A stretch of 62,611 bases of DNA from positions 1 to 62,611 of the forward strand of contig LJTQ01000001.1 in NCBI GenBank assembly GCA_001303445.1. The letters are read 5' to 3'. The stretch comes from Betaproteobacteria bacterium SG8_39. Lineage in GTDB: Bacteria > Pseudomonadota > Gammaproteobacteria > Burkholderiales > SG8-39. How positions within the stretch are numbered: position 1 is the stretch's first letter; every line of letters starts with the position of its first letter. The notes under the pieces are model-generated. The model saw nothing but the letters and a program-made list of their open reading frames with translations. It was not told the DNA's origin and ran no database searches. Positions 42,278-56,511 of the stretch are shown piece by piece. A program made the position numbers and the translations under genes.

Positions 42278-43735
42278 ATGGGCAAAGTCACCGGATTTCT
42301 CGAGTATCAGCGCCTCGCTGAGGCTGCCGAGCCGATTGAGGAGCGCAAGAAGCACTACCGGGAATTCGTCCTTCACCTGAGCGACGAGGAGGCGAAAGTC
42401 CAGGGCGCGCGCTGCATGGATTGCGGCACCCCGTTTTGCATGTCGGGTTGCCCGGTGAACAACGTCATCCCCGACTTCAACGACCTGGTGTTCCGGCAGG
42501 ATTGGCAGCAGGCGATCGAGACGCTGCATTCGACGAACAATTTCCCGGAATTCACCGGGCGCGTCTGTCCGGCGCCCTGCGAAGAGGCCTGCGTCCTGCG
42601 CATCAACAATGATGCGGTTGGCATCAAGTCGATCGAGCACGCGATCATCGACAAGGCATGGGAGGCGGGCTGGGTCGCGCCACAACCGGCCTCGCACAAA
42701 ACCGGCAAGCGGGTCGCCGTCGTCGGCTCGGGGCCCGCGGGGCTGGCCTGCGCGCAGCAGCTTGCGCGCGCAGGGCACGAAGCCGTGGTGTTCGAGAAGA
42801 ACGACCGCCCGGGTGGGCTTCTGCGCTACGGTATTCCGGACTTCAAGCTTGAGAAATGGCTGATCGACCGCCGCCTTGCCCAACTGCAGTCCGAGGGCGT
42901 CTCGATCCGGACCAATCACGTGGTGGGCGAGGCACCCGTCGGCGCCGGTAACGCGGACGCCGTGGCGCTCGATCCGGCGACGATCATCGATGAATTCGAT
43001 GCCGTCGTGCTTGCCGGCGGCGCTGAACAGCCACGCGATCTGCCGATCCCCGGGCGCGACCTCGACGGCGTTCACTTCGCCATGCAGTTCCTGCCGTTGC
43101 AGAACCGGCGTGTCGCCGGGGACACGGGGGTCAAGGATCTTTGGGCGACCGACAAGCATGTCGTCGTCATTGGCGGCGGCGATACCGGCTCGGACTGTGT
43201 CGGCACGTCTAATCGGCATGGCGCAAAATCAGTCACCCAGTTCGAGCTGCTGCCGATGCCGCCGGATCCGGAACGCAACCCGGTATGGCCCTACTGGCCG
43301 ACGCGGCTGCGCACCTCCTCTTCACACGAGGAAGGCGTTGCGCGCGACTGGTCGGTGGCGACCAAGGAATTCATCGGCGAGAACGGGCGCGTAACAGCGC
43401 TCAGGGGCGTGCGCCTGGAATGGAGGGACGGCAAGATGCACGAGATTCTCGACTCGGAGTTCACGCTGCCCGCGGATCTCGTGCTGCTGGCGATGGGGTT
43501 CGTCTCCCCGGTTCAGACCCTGCTCGACGCCTTCGGCGTGGCGAAAGATCCCCGCGGCAATGCGCAGGCGACGACCGAGGGCGAAGGCTGTTACGTCACC
43601 TCTGCGCCCAAGGTGTTCACCGCGGGTGACATGCGACGTGGCCAATCGCTCGTCGTGTGGGCGATCCGCGAAGGCCGCCAGTGCGCCCGCGCAGTAGACG
43701 AATTCCTCATGGGGTCGTCGGAACTGCCGCGCTGA
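42278..43735 (+). CDS. gltD: glutamate synthase small subunit
   Basis: 485 aa. Fe-S motif [13 protein letters not shown]...CPVNN, CPAPCE, and FAD/NAD folds [14 protein letters not shown] and [13 protein letters not shown]. Confidence 0.95.
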
Positions 43736-43743
43736 GACACGCG

Positions 43744-44388
43744 ATGGCCGCGCATGCGGGTCCGCGGGTATTCCGCCTGAGCGACGCCGAGCTTGCGGCG
43801 ATTCGCGCGCATGCCATCACGCGAAAGCATCCTAAGAACACCATCATCGTCAGCGAGGGCGACAGCACCGACGGCTTGTTCATCGTGATCGATGGGCGCG
43901 TCAAGGTTTTCGTCAGCGACGAGGACGGGCACGAAGTGGTGCTCGGCACGCACGGACCCGGCGAGTATTTCGGCGAGATGGCGCTCGATGCGGGGCCACG
44001 CTCGGCGTCGGTTGTCACCCTCGAGCCCTGCCAGCTGCTTGTCGTGCCGAAAGAGGACTTTCGCGAGTTCGTCGAGCGCAACCCGGCGTTCGCGTCCAGC
44101 CTGATCGGCAAGCTCATCGCGCGCGTGCGGGCGCTGACCGACAACGTCAAGAGCCTTGCCCTGATGGACGTCTATGGCCGCTTGGCGCGGCTGCTTCTCG
44201 AACTGGCCGAGGAGCGCGATGGCGTACTGATGATCGGCGAGCGGCTCACGCAGCAGGAGATCGCCAGCCGTATCGGCGCCTCGCGCGAGATGGTGAGCCG
44301 CATCCTGAAGGACCTGACGACCGGTGGGTACATCACCCAGTCCCGCGCGGGCATCGTGTTACATCGCCGACCCCCGCTGCACTGGTAA
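43744..44388 (+). CDS. Crp/Fnr-family transcription regulator with cyclic-nucleotide-binding domain
   Basis: Start at ATG 43744, 8 nt after the gltD stop. cNMP pocket FGEMALDAGPRSASVV, C-terminal HTH (TQQEIASRIGASREMVSRILKDL). No N-terminal Cys cluster, so not an FNR-type O2 sensor. Confidence 0.85.
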   Translation: MAAHAGPRVFRLSDAELAAIRAHAITRKHPKNTIIVSEGDSTDGLFIVIDGRVKVFVSDEDGHEVVLGTHGPGEYFGEMALDAGPRSASVVTLEPCQLLVVPKEDFREFVERNPAFASSLIGKLIARVRALTDNVKSLALMDVYGRLARLLLELAEERDGVLMIGERLTQQEIASRIGASREMVSRILKDLTTGGYITQSRAGIVLHRRPPLHW

Positions 44389-44633: not shown

Positions 44634-44688
44634 AATCGATCCGCTTAGTGTTCAGCCCGGGGCGATGGCGCGCCGGGAAGGGGGAAGA

Positions 44689-45663
44689 ATGAATCGGCGC
44701 GACGGCCTCGCGGCTCTGCTCGGCGCGCTCGTAGTCCCGGCCGCTTCGCTCGCCCAGGGCGCGCGAATTCCGAGAATCGGCTACTTGACGCTTGCCCCGC
44801 TCGGCGAAAAACCCTCGGGCGACCGGCTGGCGTTTTTGGAGGGGCTGCGCGAGCTGGGCCATGTCGACGGCAAGACCGTCGAGATCGTCTATCGCTCGGG
44901 CGAGATGAATCTCGAGATTCTCGGGTTTGCGGCGCAGTCGCTCGTCGAGGCAAAGGTCGATGTCATCGCAGTTGCCGGTACGGTCCCAGCGCTCGCCGCA
45001 AAAAAGGCGACCGCGACGATTCCGATCGTCATGATTTTTGCCTCCGAGCCCGTGATCGCCGGCCTGGTTGACGACCTTGCGCGGCCTGGTGGCAACGTCA
45101 CCGGCGTATCGACGATTCAGACCGAGCTTGATCCCAAGCGGCTCGCGATGCTGAAGGAGATCAAGCCCGACATAAGGCGCGTCGCGGCATTCTGGACGCG
45201 CTTTCACCCGTCGCATGAGGCCGAAATTCAGGTCGTCGAAAAAACGGCGCAATCGCTGGGCCTCGTGCTGGAGTCGTACGATGTAACCGATGACCTGCTG
45301 GGTGTTCTGCGCACGCTGGGAGCACGCCCGCCCGACGCGGTCTTCGTCCTTTGGGACGTGCGCACGCTCAGCTACCGGCAGTTCATCATTGACTTCGCGT
45401 TCAAGCACAAGCTGCCGACGAGCATGCCGCTTGAGCCCTACGTGGTCTCGGGCGGCCTGATGTCCTACGGTCCCAACGTGCGGGCGATCTTCCGGCGTAG
45501 CGCCTCGTATGTGCACCGCATCCTGCGCGGCGCAAAGCCGGCCGACCTGCCGGTCGAGCGGCCGGCAAAATTCGACCTCGTGCTGAACATGAGGACCGCC
45601 CGTGCTTTGAAGCTTGAGCTGCCGGCGACGCTGACCCTGCTGGCAGACCGAATAGTCGAGTGA
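44689..45663 (+). CDS. periplasmic binding protein, ABC_sub_bind type, paralog 1 (no transporter partner in window)
   Basis: Start at ATG 44689 after GGGGGAAG (MNRRDGLAALLGALVVPAASLAQG signal). IPRIGYL, ATIPIVM, ARPGGNVTGVS and C-terminal RGAKPADLPVERPAKFDLVLNMRTARALKLELPATLTLLADRIVE are family hallmarks. Confidence 0.85.
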   Translation: MNRRDGLAALLGALVVPAASLAQGARIPRIGYLTLAPLGEKPSGDRLAFLEGLRELGHVDGKTVEIVYRSGEMNLEILGFAAQSLVEAKVDVIAVAGTVPALAAKKATATIPIVMIFASEPVIAGLVDDLARPGGNVTGVSTIQTELDPKRLAMLKEIKPDIRRVAAFWTRFHPSHEAEIQVVEKTAQSLGLVLESYDVTDDLLGVLRTLGARPPDAVFVLWDVRTLSYRQFIIDFAFKHKLPTSMPLEPYVVSGGLMSYGPNVRAIFRRSASYVHRILRGAKPADLPVERPAKFDLVLNMRTARALKLELPATLTLLADRIVE

Positions 45664-46643
45664 ATCGCCGGAAGACACTCGCCGCGTTGTTCGCCCTCAC
45701 CGCAATGCCCGGCTGGCTACGCGCAGAGGGCGCGCGCCGGCCGAAGATCGGCTACCTCGTGCTGGAGTCGATCCGGGAGGCTCCATCCAGGGAGCGGCAG
45801 GCCTTTCTCGACGGCCTGCACAGTTTCGGGCTGGTCGCGGGGAAGTCGCTCGACATCGTCTACCGGTCAGCGGAGAACGAGCCGGAATTTCTGCGTCCGA
45901 TGTGCGAAGAGCTGTTGCGCGAAAACGTCGATGTCCTGGCCACCGTGGGCGCGCTGCCGACGCTGGCCTGCCTGCAGACGACGGGCACGGTGCCGATCGT
46001 CTTTCTCGCGGCGGGCGACCCGATTGGCATCGGGGCGGCCGAGTCACTCGCACGCCCTGGTCGCAACGCGACCGGCGTGAGCTACATCCTGAGCGAGCTG
46101 GCGGGCAAGCGAATCGAGTTTTTGCGCCTTGCCGTGCCCGCCGCCCGGCGGGTCGCCTTCGTCTGGGACCTGACCAATCGAGAGGCGCAGATCGAGGCGG
46201 AGGTTGCGCAGGCCGCGGCGGTGAAGCTCGGCATCCGGACCGACCCGGTGCCGGTCGATTCACAGTCCAGCTTGCACGCGGGCCTCGAGCGCATTGCGCG
46301 CGCGCGACCGGATGCGATTTACATGAGCTTCGCCGCAGGCGTGATCGCGCGCAATCGCACGACGATTGCCGAATTCGGCTTGCGGCATCGCCTGCCGGTG
46401 GTCTCCGGCTGGACATTCATGACGGAGGCCGGCGGACTGTTGAGCTACTCGCCCGATATCCAGGCGATGTTCCGCCGCAGCGCCTACTATGTGGATCGCA
46501 TTATCAAGGGCGCAAAACCCGGTGAGCTGCCGATCGAACAGGCGACAAAGATCGAGCTGGTGGTCAATCTCGCGACGGCGCGAAGGCTGGGCATCACGCT
46601 GCCGCCCGACATCCTGCTGCACGCCGACCGGGTAATCGAGTGA
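45660..46643 (+). CDS. periplasmic binding protein, ABC_sub_bind type, paralog 2
   Basis: GTG 45660 overlaps the previous stop (GTGA). Same motif set (PKIGYL, TVPIVFL, ARPGRNATGVS, KGAKPGELPIEQATKIELVVNLATARRLGITLPPDILLHADRVIE). Confidence 0.85.
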   Translation: MNRRKTLAALFALTAMPGWLRAEGARRPKIGYLVLESIREAPSRERQAFLDGLHSFGLVAGKSLDIVYRSAENEPEFLRPMCEELLRENVDVLATVGALPTLACLQTTGTVPIVFLAAGDPIGIGAAESLARPGRNATGVSYILSELAGKRIEFLRLAVPAARRVAFVWDLTNREAQIEAEVAQAAAVKLGIRTDPVPVDSQSSLHAGLERIARARPDAIYMSFAAGVIARNRTTIAEFGLRHRLPVVSGWTFMTEAGGLLSYSPDIQAMFRRSAYYVDRIIKGAKPGELPIEQATKIELVVNLATARRLGITLPPDILLHADRVIE

Positions 46644-49600
46644 AGAAGCGCGGCAGCATCTACCGCAAGTACGTCGTTCTGGTCGTCGCACTGGTCGGCG
46701 GCGCGCTGCTGGTGAGCGGGCTCGCCAGCATGTACCGCACCTATGTCGAGACGCGGGCCGCACTGCTTGCGGTCGAGCGCGAGCACGCGGTCTCCGCCTC
46801 AATCCGGATCGAGAATTTCGTCGAGAACATCGAGCGGCAGATCGGCTGGACGTCGCTGCCGCAGGTCGTGGCGAATGCCAATAAGCTCGAAACGCGGCGG
46901 TTCGACTACATCAAGCTCCTGCGTCAGGTGAAGGAGATCACCGAGGCGACCTACATCGACGCGCAGGGCCAGGAGCAGGTGCGCGAGTCGCGCATCGGGA
47001 TGTCCGCCTACGGCAGTGGCGCGGACCTGAGCGATGACCCGCGGTTCAAGGCCGCAAGCACCGGGCAGACCTATTTCGGCCCGGTCATCTTCCGCAAGGA
47101 GACCGAGCCGTACATGGCGATCGCCGTGCCGATCGACAAGTATGCCGGTGGCGGAGTGACCGCAGTCGACGTCAACCTGAAATTCATGTGGGAGGTGATC
47201 CAGCGCATCCGGGTCGGCAAGACGGGCTTTGCCTACGTCGTCGACCGGCGGGGGCGCCTGATCGCACATCCCGATATCAGCCTGGTGCTGCAGAAGACGG
47301 ATCTGTCTTCGCTGCCGCAGGTGGGGGCAGCGCTTCCGCGGGAGGGCGTCGCGGCAAGCGCCGTGCCGCGCGTCAGCGAAGCACGTGACCTTGCCGGCAA
47401 GCCGGTGCTGACGGCTTCGGCGCGCATCGAGTCGCTCGGCTGGACGGTGTTCGTCGAGCAATCGGCCGACGAGGCCTACCGGCCGTTGTACGCCTCGTTG
47501 CTGCGCACTGGCGGCCTGCTCATTGCCGGCCTGCTGCTCGCGATGATCGCCGGCTTCATCTTCGCGCGCCGCATGGTCGAGCCAATCCGCGCGCTGCAGG
47601 CGGGTGCGGACGCGCTCGGCGAAGGTGACCTTGCGCGGCGCATCGAGGTGCGCACCGGGGACGAGCTCGAAGCACTCGGCGAGCGTTTCAACGAGATGGC
47701 CAGCAAGCTCGCCGCCTCCTACGCGGGGCTCGAGCGCAAGGTCGAGGAACGCACGCAGGAGCTTCAGGAGACGCTCGGGCGGCAAACCGCAACCAGCGAG
47801 GTGCTGCGCGCGATCAGTGGTTCGCCGACCGACACGGCGCCGGTGTTCGATGTGATCCTGCACCGCGTGGTGGCGCTGTGTGAGGCGGGCGTCGCCGTGC
47901 TCCTGATGTACGACGGCGACCTGCTGCGGCCGGTGGCCGGCGTGAACGTGGTGCCCGAGCTGTTCGAAAAGCTGCGCGCTGCCGAGCTGCGCCCGGCGCC
48001 GTGGAACCCGACGCTGCTTGCGGCGCTCGAGCGGCGTACGGTGCATGCGAGCGATATTCTGGACTTCCCGGAGTTCCGACCGCTGACGGGCGGCACGATG
48101 ACGCGCGACGATCCCTGGCGCACGGCGCTTGCCGTGCCGCTGCTGCGCGAAGGCACACTCACCGGGGTCATCACTGCGTGGCGCAAGGCCGTGCGGCCGT
48201 TCACCGAGAAGCAGATCGAACTGGTGTCGACCTTCGCCGACCAGGCGGTGATCGCGATCGAGAACGTACGCCTGTTCAACGAGACCACCGAGGCGCTTGA
48301 GCAGCAGACCGCCACCGCCGAGATTCTGCGCGCGATCTCGGCCTCGCCGAGCGACGTCGCGCCGGTGTTCGAGGCGATCCTCGACAGCGCCACGCGCTTG
48401 TGCGACAGCCCGCTCTCCGCGGTATTCCGTTACGAAGGCGAGGTCGTCCATCTGGTCGCGCACCGCAACTGGCCGCCCTCCGCAATTGCGGAAATGAAGA
48501 AGTACTACCCGGGGCCACCGAACTCGAAGATGATGAGTGGGCGCACGATTCTCTCCGGGGTGCTGCAGCACGAGGACGACACGCACGCCGATTCGGGCTA
48601 CGACCAGAGGGTGGCGCACAGCGGAGGCTGGCGGCGCATGCTCGGTGTGCCGATCAAGCGCGGCGCCAGGGTTCTCGGTGCTGTCATCGTGGGTTGGCCG
48701 ACACCGGGCAAGACGCCCGAGCGGCAGATGCGGCTGCTCGAAACCTTCGCCGAGCAGGCGGCGATCGCGATCGAGAACGTGCGCCTGTTCAACGAGACCA
48801 AGGAGGCGCTCGAGCAGCAGCAGGCCTCGGCCGAGGTCCTCGGCGTCATCAGCAGCTCGGTGGCCGATACCCAGCCGGTGTTCGACAAGGTGACGGAAAG
48901 CTGCCAGCGGCTGTTTGCAGGTCTCAACGTCGGCATCAACGTGGTGCGTGACGATGGCCAGCTTTACCTCGCCGCCTTCTCGGGGCCTGCGCGGGAGGCC
49001 CTCGAGGGTGTTTTTCCGGTACCGCTCAGCCGGGACTCGGGGTCGGGCGCGGCGATCCTGCAGCGCCAGGTGCTGCACTACCCGGACGTCGAGGCGGTGG
49101 ATGTGCCCGAGTTTGCGCGGCGCGGGTCACGTGCGGCCGGAAACCGGGCAGTGATCTTTGCGCCGATCCTGTGGGAGGGCAAAGGCATCGGCGCGATTCA
49201 CGTCGGGCGGGCACGCACGGGCCCGTTTTCCGACAAGGAGATCGCGCTGCTCAGGCATTTCGCCGACCAGACCGCGATCGCGATCCAGAACGCGCGCCTG
49301 TTCCGCGAGATCGAGGACAAGAGCCGGCAGCTCGAGATCGCCAACAAGCACAAGTCGGACTTTCTCGCCAACATGTCGCATGAGCTGCGTACGCCGCTCA
49401 ACGCGATCATCGGCTTCTCGGAAGTGCTGACCGAGAAAATGTTCGGCGAAGTGAACGAGAAGCAGCTCGACTACCTGCAGGACATCCATTCCTCCGGCAA
49501 GCACCTGCTCTCGCTGATCAACGACATTCTCGACCTGTCGAAAATCGAGGCCGGGCGGATGGAGCTCGATCTGGTTCAAGTCAACGTGCCCGATACGCTG

Positions 49601-50047
49601 TCGAGCGCGCTGACGCTGGTGCGCGAGCGCGCACAGAACCACGGTATCCAGCTCGCGCTCGAGATCGACCCGAAAGTCGGCGTCATCGAGGCCGATGAGC
49701 GCAAGGTGAAGCAGGTCGTGCTGAACCTGCTGTCGAACGCGGTCAAATTCACGCCAGACGGAGGCCGGATCGCGATGCGTGCGACACTCGATACGGACCA
49801 TGTGGCAGTTGCGGTTCATGACACCGGCATCGGCATCGCGCCAGAGGACCAGGACGCGGTGTTCGAGGAGTTCAAGCAGGTCGGGCGCGACTACACCAAG
49901 AAAGCCGAGGGTACGGGTCTCGGCCTTGCCCTCACCAAGCGCATCGTCGAGTTGCACGGCGGACGCATCTGGCTCGAAAGCGCGCCGGGCAAGGGCTCGA
50001 CCTTCACGTTTACACTTCCGCTGACCCAGGAGAAGGGGGCGCCATGA
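46640..50047 (+). CDS. sensor histidine kinase: TM - Cache-like periplasmic domain - TM - HAMP - three GAF modules - HisKA - HATPase
   Basis: 1135 aa, GTGA overlap with paralog 2. TM1 VVLVVALVGGALLVSGL, Cache motif GFAYVVDRRGRLIAHPD, TM2 GGLLIAGLLLAMIAGFIF, HAMP (PIRALQAGADALGEGDLARRIEVRTGDELEAL). Three repeats are delimited by AIAIENVRLFNET.EALEQQ.A.AE. H-box SHELRTPLN, G-boxes HDTGIGI and GTGLGLALT. Confidence 0.9.
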   Translation: MKKRGSIYRKYVVLVVALVGGALLVSGLASMYRTYVETRAALLAVEREHAVSASIRIENFVENIERQIGWTSLPQVVANANKLETRRFDYIKLLRQVKEITEATYIDAQGQEQVRESRIGMSAYGSGADLSDDPRFKAASTGQTYFGPVIFRKETEPYMAIAVPIDKYAGGGVTAVDVNLKFMWEVIQRIRVGKTGFAYVVDRRGRLIAHPDISLVLQKTDLSSLPQVGAALPREGVAASAVPRVSEARDLAGKPVLTASARIESLGWTVFVEQSADEAYRPLYASLLRTGGLLIAGLLLAMIAGFIFARRMVEPIRALQAGADALGEGDLARRIEVRTGDELEALGERFNEMASKLAASYAGLERKVEERTQELQETLGRQTATSEVLRAISGSPTDTAPVFDVILHRVVALCEAGVAVLLMYDGDLLRPVAGVNVVPELFEKLRAAELRPAPWNPTLLAALERRTVHASDILDFPEFRPLTGGTMTRDDPWRTALAVPLLREGTLTGVITAWRKAVRPFTEKQIELVSTFADQAVIAIENVRLFNETTEALEQQTATAEILRAISASPSDVAPVFEAILDSATRLCDSPLSAVFRYEGEVVHLVAHRNWPPSAIAEMKKYYPGPPNSKMMSGRTILSGVLQHEDDTHADSGYDQRVAHSGGWRRMLGVPIKRGARVLGAVIVGWPTPGKTPERQMRLLETFAEQAAIAIENVRLFNETKEALEQQQASAEVLGVISSSVADTQPVFDKVTESCQRLFAGLNVGINVVRDDGQLYLAAFSGPAREALEGVFPVPLSRDSGSGAAILQRQVLHYPDVEAVDVPEFARRGSRAAGNRAVIFAPILWEGKGIGAIHVGRARTGPFSDKEIALLRHFADQTAIAIQNARLFREIEDKSRQLEIANKHKSDFLANMSHELRTPLNAIIGFSEVLTEKMFGEVNEKQLDYLQDIHSSGKHLLSLINDILDLSKIEAGRMELDLVQVNVPDTLSSALTLVRERAQNHGIQLALEIDPKVGVIEADERKVKQVVLNLLSNAVKFTPDGGRIAMRATLDTDHVAVAVHDTGIGIAPEDQDAVFEEFKQVGRDYTKKAEGTGLGLALTKRIVELHGGRIWLESAPGKGSTFTFTLPLTQEKGAP

Positions 50048-50418
50048 GCGTAGTCCTGATCGTCGAAGACAACGACAAAAACATGAAGCTCGCGCGCGAC
50101 GTGCTGCAGGCCAAGGGGTATTCGACGCTCGAGGCAGTGACCGGCGAGGACGGCGTGCGGATCGCCAAAGAGCAGTGCCCCGATCTCGTGTTGATGGATA
50201 TCCAGCTGCCGGGCATCAGCGGCATCGATGCACTCAAGGCGCTGAGGAGCGATGCGCAGACCGCGAAGATCCCGGTTGCGGCGCTGACCGCCTCGGTGAC
50301 GCCGACCGACCGCTCGCAGATCGCGGCGGCAGGGTTCGACGCGTTCCTTTCGAAGCCGATCAATTTGAAGGAATTCCTCGAGACGGTAAAACGCCTGACG
50401 GAGGGTGAGCGCGCGTGA
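50044..50418 (+). CDS. stand-alone receiver (CheY-like) response regulator
   Basis: 124 aa, ATGA overlap with the kinase stop. VLIVEDNDKN, phospho-acceptor context DLVLMDIQLPG, SKP lysine. Confidence 0.9.
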   Translation: MSVVLIVEDNDKNMKLARDVLQAKGYSTLEAVTGEDGVRIAKEQCPDLVLMDIQLPGISGIDALKALRSDAQTAKIPVAALTASVTPTDRSQIAAAGFDAFLSKPINLKEFLETVKRLTEGERA

Positions 50419-51515
50419 GTCACAAGGTTCTCGTGGTCGACGACACACCGGCGAACGTCAAGCTGCTCGCTGACCTGCTCAAGGTCAAGGGCTATGAGGT
50501 GGCGACGGCGGCGAACGGCGAGGAGGGGCTCGCCAAGGTCGCCGCCGAGCACCCGGACATCGTGCTGCTCGACATCATGATGCCGGGCATGTCGGGCTAT
50601 GACGTGTGCCGCACGATTCGCGCAAACCCAGCCACCGCGCTGCTGCCGGTGGTGCTGGTGACCTCGCTCGACCCCAACCAGGAGCGGGTGAAGGGCATGG
50701 AGGCAGGGGCCGACGATTTTCTGCAGAAGCCGATCAACCAGCAGGAACTGTTCGCGCGCGTGAAGTCGCTGTTGCGCGTAAAGTCGCTGCAGGACGAGGT
50801 GAAGCAGCAGGCGGAGAAGCTCGCCGAGTGGAACGCGATGCTCGAGGCGAGGGTGAAAGAGCAGGTGGATCAGCTCGAGCGTCTCGGACGGCTGAAAAAC
50901 TTCTTCTCGCCGCAGCTCGGTGAAGCGATTCTTGCCGGCGGCGGCGAAGATCTGCTGAAGACGCACCGCCGCGAGGTGAACGTCGTGTTTCTCGATCTGC
51001 GCAGGTTCACCGCCTTCATCGATAACGCAGAGCCGGAGGAGGTGATGGAGCTGCTGCGTGAGTACCACGCCGCAATGGGCAAGCTGGTGCTGGCGCACGG
51101 CGGTACGCTCGAGCGCTTCGCCGGCGATGGCATGATGATCTTCTTCAACGACCCCGTGCCGATGGACAAGCCCGCCGAGTTGGCGGTGAAGATGGCGCTC
51201 GAGATGCAGCAGGCATTCCTGCCGATCGGGCAAAAATGGACCAAGCGCGGCTACGATCTCGGACTCGGCATCGGCATCGCGCAGGGTTATGCGACCTGCG
51301 GCGCGATCGGCTTCGAAGGGCGCTGGGACTATGCGGCAATCGGCAATGCGACCAACCTGGCCGCGCGTCTGTGTGCCGAGGCCGCGGGCGGCGAGATTCT
51401 GATCGATCGCAAGACGATGGCCGCAGTGGACGGTGCGTTCCAGTTCGCCGAGGCGGGGCCGTTCGAGCTCAAGGGCTACAGTCAGCCGGTACCGGCCTAT
51501 CGCGTGACCGAGTAA
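50415..51515 (+). CDS. response regulator with class III adenylate/guanylate cyclase output domain
   Basis: 366 aa, GTGA overlap. Receiver (VLVVDDTPANV, IVLLDIMMPG, QKP), coiled-coil linker, cyclase homology domain (VVFLDLRRFT, FAGDGMMIFFN, WDYAAIGNATNLAARL). Confidence 0.88.
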   Translation: MSHKVLVVDDTPANVKLLADLLKVKGYEVATAANGEEGLAKVAAEHPDIVLLDIMMPGMSGYDVCRTIRANPATALLPVVLVTSLDPNQERVKGMEAGADDFLQKPINQQELFARVKSLLRVKSLQDEVKQQAEKLAEWNAMLEARVKEQVDQLERLGRLKNFFSPQLGEAILAGGGEDLLKTHRREVNVVFLDLRRFTAFIDNAEPEEVMELLREYHAAMGKLVLAHGGTLERFAGDGMMIFFNDPVPMDKPAELAVKMALEMQQAFLPIGQKWTKRGYDLGLGIGIAQGYATCGAIGFEGRWDYAAIGNATNLAARLCAEAAGGEILIDRKTMAAVDGAFQFAEAGPFELKGYSQPVPAYRVTE

Positions 51516-51544
51516 CCGTCCCACATGGAACCGGGAGGGCTGCG

Positions 51545-51850
51545 ATGCAACTGACAAGCATGCTAAAGTGCAGTGCGTTGATCGCCGGATGTCTGCTCGT
51601 CGTATCGGCGACTGCAGACGAGCGCACGGTACTGTTCACCATTCCGAAAATGAGCTCGGCGGAATGTCAGGTTGTGGTCACCGGCGCGCTTAAGGGCGTC
51701 GAAGGCGTGCGCAAGGTTTCGGCGGCGTATTCGACCAAGAGCGCCTATGTGACCTACGAGGACCGGAAAACGAATCTCGAGGCTTTGAAAAAGGCGACCG
51801 CGCGCGAAGGCTATCCGGTCTCCGACACGGTCGAGACGCGCAGGCAGTGA
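51545..51850 (+). CDS. secreted HMA-fold (heavy-metal-associated-like) small protein with degenerate metal motif
   Basis: ATG 51545 after GGGAGGG. 101 aa. Signal peptide MQLTSMLKCSALIAGCLLVVSATA. The core TVLFTIPKMSSAECQVVVTGALKGVEGVRKVSAAYSTKSAYVTYED...LKKATAREGYPV fits the beta-alpha-beta-beta-alpha-beta HMA pattern, but GMTCxxC is replaced by KMSSAEC (one Cys). Confidence 0.55.
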   Translation: MQLTSMLKCSALIAGCLLVVSATADERTVLFTIPKMSSAECQVVVTGALKGVEGVRKVSAAYSTKSAYVTYEDRKTNLEALKKATAREGYPVSDTVETRRQ

Positions 51851-52830
51851 AGCTGTCGGCCGCCATCGGCATCTGGCTCGCCGCGACGCTTGCCGGCACC
51901 TCGGTGCCGTCGACCGCGCTCGCGCAGGGCGCTCAGCGGTTGGCGTTCTTCACGTCGAGCGAAACGCCGACGGCGATACGCCAGCGCGACGCCCTGCTGG
52001 AAGGCCTGCGCGGACAGGGCATCGTGCCGGGAAAGGATCTGCGGCTGATCGAGGTCATCGCCGATCACGATTTTCGTCGATTGCCCGAGCTGGCGACGAA
52101 GCTGATGGAACAGAATCCGGACGTGATTGTGACGGCGTATGCCGGGGCGACGCTCGCCGCGATGCACGTCGCCGGCGATACGCCGGTGGTGTTCGCCGCG
52201 GTGAGCGGCCCGGTAGGCAACGGCATGGTGAAGAGTCTGGCGCATCCAGGCGGCAGCGCGACCGGGGTGGCGACGAACTATGCGGGCCTGGGCGGCAAGC
52301 GGCTCGAGTTGCTGAAGGACGCGTTTCCCAGCGTCTCCCGCGTCGCGCTGCTTTACCAGGAGAAGTACGCCTCGGCCTGCGAGCTCGAAATCAGCGAGGT
52401 CGTGGCAGCTGCGGGGCAGCTCGGGCTCGAGATAAAGCATTTCTCGGTCGTCGGGGGAGGTGCGCTCGGCGACGCGTTCAAGCGCATGAAGGCGCAGGGC
52501 GCGAATGCACTGTACGTGCCGACCTCGCCAATCAGCGCGTACATGCCGACGATCGTCCTGCTGGCGCGAAAGCATGGGCTGCCGGCGATATACGACAACC
52601 AGCGCTACGTCGAGGAGGGTGCCTTGATGTCCTTCGGCGCCGACGAAGCCGAAAGCTTCCGTCGTGCGGCACGGTACGTGGCGCGCATCCTGCGCGGCGC
52701 GAAACCGGGCGCGATGCCGGTCGAGGTGCTCGAGCGCGTGCGCCTCATCATCAACCTCAAGGAGGTGCGCGCGCGCAACATCGAGCTTCCGCCGTCGATC
52801 ATGACGCGGGCGGACGCGTTCGTCGAGTAA
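51847..52830 (+). CDS. periplasmic binding protein, ABC_sub_bind type, paralog 3
   Basis: GTG 51847 overlaps the previous stop. Signal peptide, then DTPVVFA, AHPGGSATGVA and RGAKPGAMPVEVLERVRLIINLKEVRARNIELPPSIMTRADAFVE. Confidence 0.85.
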   Translation: MKLSAAIGIWLAATLAGTSVPSTALAQGAQRLAFFTSSETPTAIRQRDALLEGLRGQGIVPGKDLRLIEVIADHDFRRLPELATKLMEQNPDVIVTAYAGATLAAMHVAGDTPVVFAAVSGPVGNGMVKSLAHPGGSATGVATNYAGLGGKRLELLKDAFPSVSRVALLYQEKYASACELEISEVVAAAGQLGLEIKHFSVVGGGALGDAFKRMKAQGANALYVPTSPISAYMPTIVLLARKHGLPAIYDNQRYVEEGALMSFGADEAESFRRAARYVARILRGAKPGAMPVEVLERVRLIINLKEVRARNIELPPSIMTRADAFVE

Positions 52831-52845: not shown

Positions 52846-54444
52846 TCAGGCGGCCTGCGCGCGCCAGCCCTCGAGCGCCTGCAGGTACTCGTCGGGCCGT
52901 TCCACCAGGATCTTCGGTCGGCCGGCGAAAACCTCGCCGCTTTCCGCATCGAGACAGATTTCCTCGCCTTCGGCAACGAAGGTGCTGCCGACGCGCAGCG
53001 CGCGGCGGACGGGGTCGACCGAAAGCGCGCCGCAACCGACGACGCAGGGCTTGCCGAGCTGACGGGCGACCACCGCCGCATGCGCGGTGCGGCTGCCGCG
53101 TACGGTGAGTACCCCGGCGCAGTTGGCGATGGCGCCGATATCCTCGGTCGACAGGTCTTCGCGCACCAGGATCACCGGCACCGCGCGCCGCCCGAGCCGC
53201 TGCGCGGCGGCGGCGTCCAATGCCACCCGCCCTGCGGCAACGCCGAGCCCCGCCGGGATGCCAAGCGAGAGCGGCACGAGGCCTTCGCGCGCCGCGATGC
53301 GCACGCGCTGGATCGATCCGAGATCCAGATCGGCGACGCGTTCCAGCGCTTCCCGCGGCGTGATCAAGCCGGCGTGGGCAAGCTCGACCGCGATACGCAA
53401 TGCAGCCCAGGGCGTGCGCTTGCCCGTGCGCGTCTGCAGCAGGTAGAGGCGTGCGTCCTGCACGGTGAACTCGAACTCCTGGACGTCGCGGAATTCCTGC
53501 TCGAGCGCGCGCCGCGTCTCGGCGAGATTCGCGGCCACCGCGGGCAGCACGCGCGTCATGCGCTCGGCGTCGCCGCCGGTGCTGCGACCGGAGACCACAT
53601 CCTCGCCCTGACTGTTGAACAGGAAGTCGACGTAGAGCCGGTTCTCTCCGGTCGTCGGGTCGCGCGTGAACGCCACGCCGGCGCCCGAGGTGCCGCCCGC
53701 GTTGCCGAATACCATGCGCTGCACGGTGACCGCGGTGCCGACATCGCCGTCGATCGCGTTCTGGCGTCGGTATTCGACCGCACGCGCGCTCATCCAGGAC
53801 TGGAACACTGCGCCGACCGCGGCCTCGAGCTGCTCGTAGGGGTCCTGCGGGAACGCGCGACCGACGTGCTCGGCGTAGATCTCGAGGTAGCCCTGGGTAA
53901 GCGACTGCAAGGCGCGGAAATCAAGCTCGCGCGCTGCTCTGACGCCCTCGCGCGCGAGCTGCCGCTCGAGCGCGTCGCGAAACGGCGCGGGATCGACCTG
54001 ATGTACGACTTCCGCGAACTGCTGCACCAGCCGGCGATACGAGTCCCAGGCCAGGCGCGGGTTTCCCGTCAGCCGCAGCAGGCCGCGCAGGGTGGCGTCG
54101 CACAGGCCGATGTCGAGCAGCGTGTCCATCATTCCCGGCATCGACACCGGCGCGCCCGAGCGCACCGAGACGAGCAGCGGCCGCCGCGGCGAGCCGAATC
54201 CGAGGCCGCTGGCCTGCTCGATGCCGGCGAGCGCGTCGCGCAACAGGTTGCGCAGCGTGGCGCGCGTGGCCTCGACATCGGTGAACCAGGCCCTGCAGGT
54301 CGCCGTGCCGAGCACGAAGGCCTCCGGTACGGCAAGGCCGAGGCGCGCGAGGCGCAGCAGGTTATGCGCCTTGAAGCCGATGTCCTCGGGAACGGCGAGC
54401 GCCGCATGCGGCGCGATGCTGTAGAGGTGCTGGGCCGCGCTCAT
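52846..54444 (-). CDS. PPDK/PEP-synthase-like protein: nucleotide-binding ATP-grasp (PPDK_N) plus phosphohistidine swivel domain, lacking the PEP/pyruvate TIM-barrel
   Basis: 532 aa. GFKAHNLLRLARLGLAVPEAFVLGT, TRDPTTGENRLYVDFLFNSQGEDVVSGRSTG and swivel motif VRGSRTAHAAVVARQLGKPCVVGC (His codon at 53080-53082). The ORF ends about 60 aa after the swivel domain. Confidence 0.8.
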   Translation of the reverse strand: MSAAQHLYSIAPHAALAVPEDIGFKAHNLLRLARLGLAVPEAFVLGTATCRAWFTDVEATRATLRNLLRDALAGIEQASGLGFGSPRRPLLVSVRSGAPVSMPGMMDTLLDIGLCDATLRGLLRLTGNPRLAWDSYRRLVQQFAEVVHQVDPAPFRDALERQLAREGVRAARELDFRALQSLTQGYLEIYAEHVGRAFPQDPYEQLEAAVGAVFQSWMSARAVEYRRQNAIDGDVGTAVTVQRMVFGNAGGTSGAGVAFTRDPTTGENRLYVDFLFNSQGEDVVSGRSTGGDAERMTRVLPAVAANLAETRRALEQEFRDVQEFEFTVQDARLYLLQTRTGKRTPWAALRIAVELAHAGLITPREALERVADLDLGSIQRVRIAAREGLVPLSLGIPAGLGVAAGRVALDAAAAQRLGRRAVPVILVREDLSTEDIGAIANCAGVLTVRGSRTAHAAVVARQLGKPCVVGCGALSVDPVRRALRVGSTFVAEGEEICLDAESGEVFAGRPKILVERPDEYLQALEGWRAQAA

Positions 54445-56402
54445 GCCGCCATCACCTCATTCAGCACATGGTCGCGCAGCATCAGCGCGGCGTGCATCAG
54501 CGCGTCCGCCGCCGCTTCCAGGTTGCGGGAGATTTCCGCCAGCACGAACAGCGCGCGCGGCTCGCCGGTACCGCTCAACGCGGCGGTTTTCACCTTGCGG
54601 TTCGCGTCGTCGCTCTGTCGTTCGATCTGCACGATGCGATGCACCGACTCGAAAAAGTCCTGCACATCGCCGCGCGGCACGCCGCGCCGCACCACGCGCG
54701 CCGCCTCGACCGCCTTGATGTACTCCTGCGCGCCTTCGACAACCTGGCCGGCGAGTTCGGTGAGCGCTTCGACGGCCTCGTCGGCATGGGCATCCGCGCT
54801 GGCTGCTTCGCGCAGCAGCGTGAGGTGGAACGCTGCATCCTCCAGCTCGTCGGCAATGTCGTCGCTCGATTCGACGATGCGGCACACGCTCGCGGCCTGC
54901 TCGTTGTGCTGCGCCAGGTCGCGTGCGAGGTTGACCACGCCGTCGGCGAGGTGCTCCCAGCGCTTGGCACGCTCGGCGTTGCGTGCAAAACGCTCGACGG
55001 CGCCCGGCAGCTTCGCGTTCAGCAGGCAGTCGCGCACGCCGCTCGCGATTTCGAGCGTCAGCGCCATCTGCTCGGAGGCATGGTCCAGCGCCGTCTGCTG
55101 AACCGAATGCATGCGGCCGAACAGCTCGCCGCGCAGCTCATCGAGCACCAGGCTCACCGGCTGGCCGGCGACCAGCATCTCCGCCGAGATGCGCAGCGCG
55201 AAACGCAGGAATTCCACGGCCCCGTCGCGTCCCAGCACGTCGTCGAGGCGTGCGCCGAACGCGGTCGGTGCCTTGCCGAGCGAGGCCAGTGCGTCGAACA
55301 CCGCCTGCTCGGCGCCGATGCGCAGGAACGCCATGTGGCCGACATCGTTCTCGGCCGCCCAGCGCAGCAACTTGAGAGCTTCGTTCTTGCGTACCAGCAT
55401 GCGCAGGCGCTTGCGTGCCCGGTTCCAGTCGATGAGGAAAACGAGCCGCGAGCCGAGCCAGGCGAGGTAGGCATCGAGCTCGTCAGACGACGCGGCGCGT
55501 AAACGGCCGAACGCCAGGTGATAGACCCCGTCCTCGAAACCGGCGTCGCTCTTCGAGCGGGTGTCGTTCCAGTCGACGTTCCAGCGCTTGAGCAGGCTCT
55601 GCAGGAACATCAGCCGCGGCAAGTGGACGTCGGTGTAGATCAGCGTTGCGTCCAGCCCCTCGACATGCACTACCAGGACATGCGCGTCGGTCGTGCCGAT
55701 GTCGTTCTGCAGCACCAGGCGGTGCGCCGCGCGCGTTGCCGTCGTCGCGAGTCCCGGGTGGTCGAATTTGAGCGCGCGTGTTGCGTTGACCCCGCGCATG
55801 AACGCGGCGACGCGCGGTGCGTCGCCGGCATCGAGCCCGTAGGCCAGCGCGCCGTCGATATTCTCCGACGCGATCGAGGCCTGCAGGGCGTTCAGCCCCT
55901 TGTGCAGATCCATCACCAGCAGGTGCAGGCTGCCGCCCACGGCGGCTGCATCGCGCGCACCGCGGGTCATGCGCGCGATCGCGCTGGCGTCGGCAAGCCC
56001 GTCGACCAGCCAGGGATCGGCGAGGCAGGCGGCAAGCCGGTCGGCCCAGGCGGGGGTGCGCGGATCAGCCGTCGCCTCGAACGGCGCCAGCATTTCGTGC
56101 ATCGCGGTCTTGATGCGCGCCGCGACGGTGGCTGCGTGCGGCAGCCGGTATCGCCCCGGCCCGGCCGTCACCGCCCCGCCGATGAGTTCGTCGAGCGCCG
56201 AGTCGGGTTCGCCAGCGGAGGCGCGCTCTCCCTTGAGGTCGGGTCGCTCCGCCTCGGGCTGCTCGACGTGCGCGACCGCGAGTTGCAGCAGGCTGAAGTA
56301 GTACTTGACGCGGTCGTTGGCGGCGAGCGCGGCATTGATCAGCCCGGGCAGCAGCAGGCGCTGCTCGCCCAGCACGTCGAGAATCCGATCCTTCTGCGGC
56401 AT
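54441..56402 (-). CDS. uncharacterised 653-aa protein; C-terminal ~200 aa resemble PhoU_div/DUF47 helical repeats
   Basis: Clean 653-aa ORF whose stop overlaps the start of the PPDK-like gene (ATGA at 54441-54444). No TM segments seen. The C-terminus shows the two-fold DUF47-type pattern (WEHLADGVV...DDIADELEDAAFHLTLL and IERQSDDANRKV...ISRNLEAAADALMHAALML). I do not recognise the N-terminal 450 aa. Confidence 0.6.
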   Translation of the reverse strand: MPQKDRILDVLGEQRLLLPGLINAALAANDRVKYYFSLLQLAVAHVEQPEAERPDLKGERASAGEPDSALDELIGGAVTAGPGRYRLPHAATVAARIKTAMHEMLAPFEATADPRTPAWADRLAACLADPWLVDGLADASAIARMTRGARDAAAVGGSLHLLVMDLHKGLNALQASIASENIDGALAYGLDAGDAPRVAAFMRGVNATRALKFDHPGLATTATRAAHRLVLQNDIGTTDAHVLVVHVEGLDATLIYTDVHLPRLMFLQSLLKRWNVDWNDTRSKSDAGFEDGVYHLAFGRLRAASSDELDAYLAWLGSRLVFLIDWNRARKRLRMLVRKNEALKLLRWAAENDVGHMAFLRIGAEQAVFDALASLGKAPTAFGARLDDVLGRDGAVEFLRFALRISAEMLVAGQPVSLVLDELRGELFGRMHSVQQTALDHASEQMALTLEIASGVRDCLLNAKLPGAVERFARNAERAKRWEHLADGVVNLARDLAQHNEQAASVCRIVESSDDIADELEDAAFHLTLLREAASADAHADEAVEALTELAGQVVEGAQEYIKAVEAARVVRRGVPRGDVQDFFESVHRIVQIERQSDDANRKVKTAALSGTGEPRALFVLAEISRNLEAAADALMHAALMLRDHVLNEVMAA

Positions 56403-56453
56403 GGAAATTCACTATGCGCGCCGGGCAGTTAGGCGCGTTGACGGAGGTCAAAC

Positions 56454-56462
56454 TGCTAGAAT
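56454..56462 (+). promoter_or_regulatory. candidate extended -10 element for glmUS
   Basis: TGCTAGAAT (TGn + TAGAAT) about 50 nt upstream of the glmU ATG, in the 109-nt divergent spacer. Sequence pattern only. Confidence 0.25.
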
Positions 56463-56511
56463 TCGCAGCGTCCTCCTGTCATGAACGCGCAACGCTTTTA
56501 TCGCCTCTGCC

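Follow-up and report, generated by a model that had tools for sequence, protein, structure and literature searches.

VadK (Rv1127c) of Mycobacterium tuberculosis is the closest characterised system to the gene pair described here and the proper comparator for its enzyme; it is a pyruvate phosphate dikinase (PPDK) without the C-terminal barrel that regulates the methylcitrate cycle and, given ATP and Mg, phosphorylates itself on His422 (Pascoe et al., EMBO Rep 2026, PMC13400623). VadK needs its operonic partner, Rv1126c, for solubility and is tightly bound to it; the two proteins co-purify, and 2 M NaCl is needed to separate them (PMC13400623). Descriptions of such barrel-less PPDKs, from 2025-26, treated them as peculiar to pathogenic mycobacteria and their relatives. 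This study followed up two overlapping minus-strand genes in a 62,611-nucleotide (nt) stretch of Betaproteobacteria bacterium SG8_39 (contig LJTQ01000001.1, positions 1 to 62,611, referred to as the window), which encode a partner protein of 653 amino acids (aa) and a barrel-less PPDK-type enzyme of 532 aa (together, the module) and belong to a much larger sister family tied to a different partner. The two proteins probably form an obligate phosphohistidine complex in which the partner stands in place of the barrel and which acts in phosphate/polyphosphate homeostasis. The partner joins a phosphate-regulator domain of the PhoU/PitR type to an enzyme whose chemistry consumes orthophosphate (Pi) and makes pyrophosphate (PPi).

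The gene for the 532-aa phosphohistidine enzyme (52846-54444, minus strand, stop codon included) was defined by the open reading frame (ORF) list together with Pfam, NCBIfam, and Protein Data Bank (PDB) alignments. Pfam matched PPDK_N (PF01326, E 3.9e-37) and PEP-utilizers (PF00391, E 5.2e-19) and did not match PEP-utilizers_C (PF02896), in agreement with the initial annotation, which had read the protein as the nucleotide-binding half and swivel His domain of PPDK or phosphoenolpyruvate (PEP) synthase. The ATP-grasp nucleotide-binding domain (aa ~20-343; 53416-54387, minus strand) corresponds to the PPDK_N match and carries the invariant residues K25, R95, M102-G104, E325, Q337, and R339, and the phosphohistidine swivel (PEP-utilizers mobile) domain (aa ~392-509; 52918-53271, minus strand) holds the PF00391 match at aa 423-503, with the isolated central domain 2fm4 matching aa 392-508. 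The catalytic His455 sits within GSRTAHAAVVARQLGKPCVVG and aligns with His455 of C. symbiosum PPDK; its codon is the CAT at 53080-53082 (minus strand), the position already proposed for it, and the preceding Thr453 is also invariant. In the alignment to 1kbl/9pzl, the equivalents of C. symbiosum K22, R92, M103, E323, Q335, R337, T453, and H455 are kept, and are invariant across 102 family sequences, while D321 is replaced by E; the roles assigned to these residues are those known from the PPDK literature. Every residue that canonical PPDK (EC 2.7.9.1; C. symbiosum 1KBL/1DIK; TIGR01828) uses in the nucleotide/Pi partial reaction is conserved in the 532-aa protein, as is the Thr-x-His motif of the phospho-carrier, but only the canonical enzyme has a C-terminal PEP/pyruvate TIM barrel.

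Residues 22-509 of the enzyme align to residues 18-508 of C. symbiosum PPDK and no further (E 1e-116, phmmer against PDB sequences), with an identity to canonical PPDK of ~40-45% over the first ~510 residues; the alignment to TIGR01828 (PPDK) covers model positions 17-522 of 865 and scores 528.2 bits, below the curated cutoff of 843.45. The C-terminal tail (aa 510-532; 52849-52917, minus strand) corresponds to the linker to the TIM barrel in full-length PPDK, as judged from an alignment to the plant PPDK chain up to residue ~530, and the protein stops at the end of this linker, 29 aa past the Pfam swivel domain rather than the ~60 aa first estimated, a minor imprecision. With three PPDK barrels as queries, tblastn against the 62.6-kb window and 91 related loci (1.17 Mb in total) found no TIM barrel, and no PEP-utilizers_C domain occurred among the families of neighbour genes; the absence of the barrel, noted at the outset for the enzyme, thereby extends to both proteins, the window, and the related loci. 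Lacking a TIM barrel, the 532-aa protein cannot make PEP. Scores against neighbouring branches were low, with 40.9 bits on the rifampicin phosphotransferase (RPH) model NF041857 (cutoff 999), 72-80 bits on PEP synthase (PpsA) models (cutoffs 598-740), and 23 bits on TIGR01417. These marginal scores, together with a PPDK alignment that ends at the barrel linker, indicate that the protein is an enzyme of the true PPDK branch minus its third domain and not of the PpsA or RPH type, so the RPH-type enzymes that the initial annotation had cited for comparison are not close to it.

The pairing of the enzyme with its partner is far beyond chance. Among 82 non-redundant loci, 80 had sequence downstream of the partner, and in all 80 the PPDK-half gene followed immediately in the same orientation, at a distance of -7 to +144 nt, which bears out the coupling of the two genes proposed in the initial annotation. 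All 73 complete PPDK-half copies stop 0-42 codons past the end point of the window protein and are barrel-less. The distance matrices of the two proteins are closely correlated (r=0.93, Mantel p<=0.001, 71 loci). A conserved third gene was not found, as no flanking cluster occurred in more than 8 of the 82 loci and the Pfam counts of nearest neighbours were flat. A word-indexed search returned more than 4900 full-length partner homologues of ~645 aa, and an exhaustive search with the N-terminal domain (N-domain) of the partner returned 1024 clusters at 50% identity, nearly all of them ~645 aa. With one genome scanned per species, carriers number at least 583 species and span Proteobacteria (Beta-, Gamma-, and Alphaproteobacteria), Geobacteraceae/Desulfuromonadales, Planctomycetes (Pirellulales), Gemmatimonadetes (Gemmatimonadales), methanogens (Methanomicrobiales), Thaumarchaeota, and, as fusions, Actinobacteria; the module therefore occurs in many bacterial phyla and in archaea, whereas the VadK type is found in Actinobacteria only. 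Carriers include Accumulibacter, Ca. Methylophosphatis, and Azonexaceae, which are polyphosphate-accumulating lineages, as well as the cultured Methylocella tundrae T4 (SIN04_RS02020/02025), Aquabacterium olei (DEH84_RS18005/18000), Plasticicumulans acidivorans DSM 23606, and Methanoculleus frigidifontis. At 35-38% GC, the thaumarchaeal contigs with the module indicate that the genes are native to these archaea. The labels of metagenome-assembled genomes look unreliable at three loci (L062, L072, and L032), where a 'Methanobacteriota archaeon' contig has 68% GC and betaproteobacterial-like copies are labelled 'Mycobacteriaceae' and 'Enterobacteriaceae'; taxon counts drawn from such titles must be treated with care. 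RefSeq names the partner 'DUF47 family protein' or 'phosphate transport regulator' and the enzyme 'PEP/pyruvate-binding domain-containing protein'. A literature search for DUF47 together with PPDK returned no papers, and no paper on this pairing was found.

Natural gene fusions point in the same direction. More than 80 clusters of ~1190-1240-aa proteins carry the N-domain, DUF47, PPDK_N, and PEP-utilizers in one chain; these fusions come from Solirubrobacteraceae where named, some lie on contigs of up to 3.5 Mb, and the fused ~1200-aa versions likewise have no barrel. The fusions are classic Rosetta-stone evidence, at the sequence level, that the separate proteins would form a physical complex. 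The fusions were established from protein clusters and not from ORFs in the loci; ORFs of ~1100 aa that appeared in some loci were rejected as fusions, being alternative-frame read-through in GC-rich DNA. In a second fusion class of ~1000 aa (eight clusters), an N-terminal CHAD domain precedes the partner, and in the one such CHAD-partner fusion whose DNA could be read, a 543-aa barrel-less PPDK follows again. CHAD is a specific polyphosphate-binding module that localises to polyphosphate granules (PMC6537752). One predicted 700-aa protein (P0264) continues from the first ~280 N-domain residues into a phosphate-selective porin O/P domain (PF07396); this is probably a chimera made by assembly or gene calling, but it gives a hint that an OprO/OprP gene is adjacent in the organism concerned.

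The partner gene (54441-56402, minus strand, stop codon included, from the ORF list) encodes two domains. The C-terminal PitR/PhoU-like six-helix DUF47 domain (aa 416-653; 54444-55157, minus strand) was delimited by PF01865, Foldseek, and conservation. PF01865 (PhoU_div/DUF47) matches residues 505-639 with 31.2 bits against a gathering score of 24.4, confirming the DUF47/PhoU-like C-terminus proposed earlier, and it matches in 38 of 38 aligned partner homologues; the score on TIGR00153 (25.3 bits) is below the cutoff of 104.3. The AlphaFold2 (AF2) model of the whole protein (pLDDT 88) shows six long helices at residues ~416-650, for which Foldseek returned 3l39 (TM 0.76) and the PhoU structures 4q25 and 1t72 (TM ~0.69). 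Repeated E-x3-D motifs, typical of PhoU-like proteins, lie at E483/D487, D518/E521, E594/D598, and E629/D633; the first, third, and fourth are conserved. The closest relative of this domain by function is PitR, a single-domain PF01865 regulator that, with PitA, controls PhoPR activation in S. aureus (bioRxiv 10.1101/2025.09.08.674922). The C-terminal 240 aa of the partner share the six-helix fold and the E-x3-D repeats with PitR/DUF47 (PF01865, TIGR00153) and PhoU (3L39, 2OLT, 4Q25), but PitR is a single domain of ~205 aa paired with a Pit transporter, whereas in the module it forms the C-terminal end of a 653-aa protein that pairs with a PPDK half. The window and the recurrent neighbours contained no Pit gene, and no transporter family occurred in more than a few loci.

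The N-domain (aa 1-415, helical and alpha/beta; 55158-56402, minus strand), defined from the AF2 model, Pfam, and Foldseek, is a new 415-aa domain family without a structural relative. Modelled separately, it is one well-predicted unit (pLDDT 90.6, pTM 0.84). It had no match in Pfam, NCBIfam, or PDB sequences, no Pfam family was assigned to it in any of 38 scanned members, and neither the full-length model nor the N-domain model retrieved a PDB structure for it at E<=0.001 with Foldseek. The initial annotation had described 450 N-terminal residues that it could not place; sequence and Foldseek searches returned no characterised homologue for them, which upholds that part, but the fold model puts the unit at ~415 aa. 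Across 109 sequences (<=65% identity), the N-domain is invariant at K4, N29, K33, R122, H160, H167, H215, N233, H241, D258, H260, R263, D325, W326, N327, R330, and H356. So dense a set of invariant polar residues is more suggestive of a ligand, metal, or phosphoryl site than of a mere scaffold.

Compared with VadK and Rv1126c, the module is alike in consisting of an ATP-grasp and a swivel His domain that end after the swivel, in having an operonic partner gene, and in keeping the catalytic His motif. Rv1126c binds VadK, and by analogy the partner of the module would bind its PPDK half. The partners themselves differ, that of the module being an upstream 653-aa protein with an N-domain and a PitR/PhoU-type domain and that of the VadK type being ~200 aa; the contexts also differ, with the module placed in a phosphate/polyphosphate setting and VadK in that of the methylcitrate cycle. 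No methylcitrate (prp) genes were found in the annotated part of the window or among recurrent neighbours. On the NF004531/PRK05878 model, the window protein scores 437.7 against a cutoff of 456 and four other family members score 404-439, and the PPDK halves of the module score higher on the canonical PPDK model than on NF004531. Truncated PPDKs of the NF004531 type on actinobacterial plasmids score 768 bits (Rhodococcus) and 479 bits (Streptomyces), each with a ~200-aa upstream partner. In a neighbour-joining (NJ) tree, 18 module members group with two actinobacterial NF004531 members to the exclusion of four full-length PPDKs (bootstrap 100); within this clade, support for separating the module family from the two actinobacterial proteins is weak (38%). 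Since all barrel-less members fall in one clade with a weak internal split, one ancient truncation for all barrel-less PPDKs is possible but unproven from these sequences.

A relationship between the actinobacterial partners and the partner of the module looks suggestive but lacks statistical support. The N-domain aligned to the 202- and 210-aa actinobacterial partners with an hhalign probability of 3-6% over 91 columns, and a hidden Markov model of the shared region scored these partners no better than 4000 shuffles. The ~200-aa partners (L091:4324-4932 and L092:4246-4878) end in DSVHTVWFQ[ML]HE, which resembles the helix with the invariant D157-S-x-H160-x6-H167 of the 653-aa protein (aa 157-173; 55884-55934 in the window); this statistically unsupported likeness may reflect a shared docking helix or coincidence. 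The Rhodococcus pyridinivorans plasmid pA (L091:540-11425) carries a 579-aa barrel-less PPDK of the NF004531 type with the 202-aa partner, and its cluster also contains a 238-aa PEP-utilizing protein, a 525-aa hypothetical protein, an AMP-binding enzyme, a biotin/lipoyl protein, a biotin carboxylase, a carboxyltransferase, an OB-fold protein, and a thiolase. This carboxylase-like pathway context is unlike both the methylcitrate genes of VadK and the phosphate context of the module.

Other systems use the same logic in other branches. Enzyme I of the phosphotransferase system, which donates to HPr, phenylphosphate synthase, and RPH all pass the phosphoryl group of a phosphohistidine to a non-pyruvate acceptor. 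In each, a swivelling phospho-His domain delivers the phosphate to a separate domain or subunit, but these enzymes lie in the PpsA/Enzyme I branches and have other acceptor domains, whereas the 532-aa protein lies in the true PPDK branch.

The phosphate context of the module is seen most clearly where it is part of polyphosphate operons. In Geobacteraceae-type loci, two tandem thymidylate-kinase-like (ppk3-like) genes are followed by CHAD, Ppx, the partner, and the PPDK half, with 4-bp overlaps joining the last four genes. The best PDB match of the tandem genes in the Geobacteraceae contig JBGQLM010000002.1 (L017:216-1595) is 2plr/5h70 (E 6.6e-58 and 1.9e-40), and 5h70 is named as a homologue of the catalytic subunit of PPK3, a family reported in only a few bacteria (PMC12995831); the two genes look like a bacterial heteromeric polyphosphate kinase of the PPK3 type. 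A Methanolinea locus holds PPK1 (E 1.5e-125 to 2o8r), a CHAD-Ppx domain III protein, Ppx, the partner, and the PPDK half, and in Methanoculleus frigidifontis Ppx and CHAD-metallophosphatase genes are convergent with the pair. In total, polyphosphate genes lie within 6 kb of the module in 8 of the 82 loci, from Desulfuromonadales, Thiobacillus, and Methanomicrobiales, representing at least three unrelated lineages, and PhoX, PhoD, PstS-like, PsiE, and His_Phos_1 neighbours occur at other loci. The discovery of PPK3 relied on PPX, SixA, CHAD, and PstS as the neighbour signature of polyphosphate operons (PMC12995831), and the neighbour set of the module at some loci is the same. CHAD/PptA 'phosins', PPX, and SixA are known around PPK1, PPK2, and PPK3 (PMC6537752, PMC12995831, PMC8981147), and in several lineages the module lies in the same operons or is fused to CHAD; the window copy is unlike these, having no CHAD domain in its partner (Pfam) and no polyphosphate neighbours. 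Combined, the CHAD fusions and ppk-chad-ppx operons strengthen the phosphate link that the initial annotation had raised as a possibility, and show that the pair was repeatedly wired in evolution to polyphosphate-binding CHAD domains and ppk-ppx operons. To our knowledge, neither a PPDK half nor the N-domain has been described in a polyphosphate protein.

Additional neighbours were seen at single groups of loci. A His_Phos_1 gene (SixA/PhoE-type histidine phosphatase superfamily) lies directly 3' of the module at three or more loci, Ca. Accumulibacter among them (L005:9632-10153, L065:9762-10379, and L057), and could encode a phosphohistidine phosphatase acting on the system. P-type cation-transporting ATPases adjoin the module in ~4 loci (L007, L071-type, and the P0371 contig with the CHAD fusion), and one locus has a CorA Mg2+ channel beside it; these cation transporters may reflect the Mg/Ca demand of polyphosphate, or chance.

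The reading of the module as an obligate phosphohistidine complex in phosphate/polyphosphate homeostasis is carried by the domain content, conserved catalytic residues, strict pairing, co-evolution, fusions, and recurrent polyphosphate/Pho-gene context found in the sequences. In the proposed mechanism, the ATP-grasp domain would run the nucleotide partial reaction of PPDK (E-His + ATP + Pi <-> E-His~P + AMP + PPi), so that His455 on the swivelling domain would be loaded with a phosphoryl group as Pi is consumed and PPi released; this autophosphorylation of the PPDK half is expected by analogy with PPDK and VadK. The 653-aa partner would substitute for the PEP/pyruvate barrel as the docking station of the phospho-His domain, and its N-domain, rich in His, Asp, and Arg, would accept the phosphoryl group or gate its passage, the site being an invariant His or a bound phosphate-type ligand. 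The PitR/PhoU-type six-helix domain would couple the phosphoryl step to phosphate status, and the complex may read or use the ATP·Pi/AMP·PPi balance, acting at or on the polyphosphate system beside PPK, PPX, and CHAD proteins. Of these steps, we infer how the two proteins dock, what accepts the phosphoryl group, and the regulatory output. The initial annotation had proposed the partner as the acceptor-binding or regulatory component of an ATP-dependent phosphotransferase; each computational check named there gave the favourable outcome, and the partner may serve in either role.

Several observations weigh against this reading. At approximately 85-90% of loci, neither phosphate nor polyphosphate genes lie within 6 kb, and the phosphate link therefore derives from a minority of lineages and from the domain fusions. 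In the window itself no phosphate genes adjoin the module, its neighbours being glmU/glmS, a GAF histidine kinase operon, and gltBD. The divergent intergenic region between the module and glmU (56403-56511, 109 nt, strandless), the presumed promoter region, showed no promoter upstream of the module when it was searched for a sigma-70 consensus, and it holds a lone CTGTCAT half-site and therefore no Pho box. The best structural matches of the N-domain are ACT-like domains of ~78 residues (E 0.035-0.05) and the YbjN family, all partial; these are small ligand- or protein-binding folds and non-catalytic, and a sensor would fit the N-domain as well as an acceptor. The phosphate link is thus well motivated but, given the window copy and most other loci, not universal in gene context.

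Alternative explanations must account for the same evidence. The module could be a metabolic regulator of the VadK type, an ATP-sensing histidine (di)kinase that, like VadK in the methylcitrate cycle, binds central-metabolism enzymes and tunes them, with a partner that is merely stabilising or regulatory and has no specific phosphate role. VadK is the only characterised barrel-less PPDK and requires its operonic partner (PMC13400623), the barrel-less PPDKs form one NJ clade (bootstrap 100), a Methylocella pair follows a fatty-acid beta-oxidation operon, and phosphate genes are absent near most loci, all of which would suit such a regulator. We nevertheless consider it unlikely: the PitR/PhoU-type domain is present in all partner members, CHAD fusions or ppk-chad-ppx operons occur in several unrelated lineages, no methylcitrate genes lie near the module in the window, the NF004531 scores of 404-439 fall under the cutoff, and homology to the small actinobacterial partner could not be detected. 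An ordinary split PPDK or PEP synthase, with its barrel encoded elsewhere in the genome, is nearly excluded. The residues of the first partial reaction are intact, and the barrel search covered the window and flanks of ±6-10 kb at the related loci; however, that search returned nothing with three barrels, neighbour families held no PEP-utilizers_C, the ~1200-aa fusions are barrel-less too, and the conserved partner is a different protein.

A further possibility is a polyphosphate-linked phosphotransferase, in which His455~P would exchange its phosphoryl group with a chain end held by the N-domain, making the complex an AMP/PPi-linked polyphosphate kinase or ATP regenerator gated by phosphate status through the PitR-like domain. 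The net reaction would be ATP + Pi + polyP(n) <-> AMP + PPi + polyP(n+1), the reverse of which would remake ATP from AMP, PPi, and polyphosphate. PPK1 works through a phospho-His intermediate, PPDK chemistry already handles Pi/PPi and a phospho-His, and the six invariant His together with the Arg, Lys, Asp, and Asn residues of the N-domain suit phosphate-chain binding or catalysis; the CHAD-partner fusions, the ppx/chad operons, and the occurrence of the family in polyphosphate-accumulating Accumulibacter, Ca. Methylophosphatis, and Azonexaceae would also fit. The N-domain is, however, unlike any polyphosphate enzyme fold, and operons with the module already hold a PPK (PPK1 in Methanolinea, tandem PPK3-like genes in Geobacteraceae), so that the module is not simply a missing kinase; this explanation receives a low probability. 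For the same reason, the idea of a 'missing archaeal polyphosphate kinase' was downgraded, and an accessory or regulatory component, or a different phosphotransferase, is likelier than a sole polyphosphate kinase. ATP-dependent phosphorylation of a small organic substrate bound by the N-domain, comparable to phenylphosphate synthase or RPH, appears improbable. It would follow the same architectural logic, generally known from enzymes in which another domain or subunit replaces the pyruvate site, as the initial annotation had suggested, and the N-domain has a strongly conserved, pocket-like set of polar residues and an ACT-like sub-fold of a kind typical for the binding of small ligands. On the other hand, no catabolic or biosynthetic neighbours recur, the PhoU/PitR domain is without precedent in such enzymes, the similarity to RPH/PpsA models is marginal, and the spread over methanogens, Thaumarchaeota, Planctomycetes, and Proteobacteria suggests housekeeping over niche catabolism.

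If the module acts as an obligate phosphohistidine complex, it provides a concrete and easily purified candidate for how cells measure internal phosphate or control polyphosphate. Its presence in cultured strains and in the polyphosphate-accumulating organisms of wastewater phosphorus removal makes it of interest to specialists in phosphate sensing and polyphosphate, and the proposal is testable with purified proteins.

At the level of the locus, the coordinates of the two minus-strand ORFs given in the initial annotation were confirmed from the sequence, as was their ATGA overlap (54441-54444, minus strand), in which the stop of the partner gene meets the start of the PPDK-half gene and which predicts translational coupling. 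A GAGGTG hexamer inside the partner gene (54453-54458, minus strand), 8 nt 5' of the ATG of the 532-aa protein, resembles a Shine-Dalgarno sequence and may function as one. The orientation described earlier was also correct, the module being divergent from glmU across the 109-nt gap and convergent with the last gene, ABC_sub_bind (ending at 52830), of the signalling operon of a GAF-histidine kinase, a response regulator, and a cyclase. The sole terminator-like match found falls within the partner gene, and shuffled sequence yields such matches at least as often. The claim that the pair is its own transcription unit therefore stood only in part; the gene arrangement fits, and it is from this arrangement that a single unit is predicted, as neither a promoter nor a terminator consensus was found.

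The neighbouring region (44665-52830) contains three paralogous ABC_sub_bind (PF04392) genes at 44665-45663, 45660-46643, and 51847-52830. This trio brackets a dCache-HAMP-3xGAF histidine kinase, a stand-alone receiver, and a receiver-adenylate/guanylate cyclase, and a gene for a Crp-family regulator lies just upstream of the set at 43657-44388; the set looks like a self-contained circuit from sensing to cyclic nucleotide. In the ORF at 51236-51850, the last ~70 residues look, by eye, like a signal-peptide-bearing domain of the heavy-metal-associated type in which MSSAEC replaces the usual MxCxxC.

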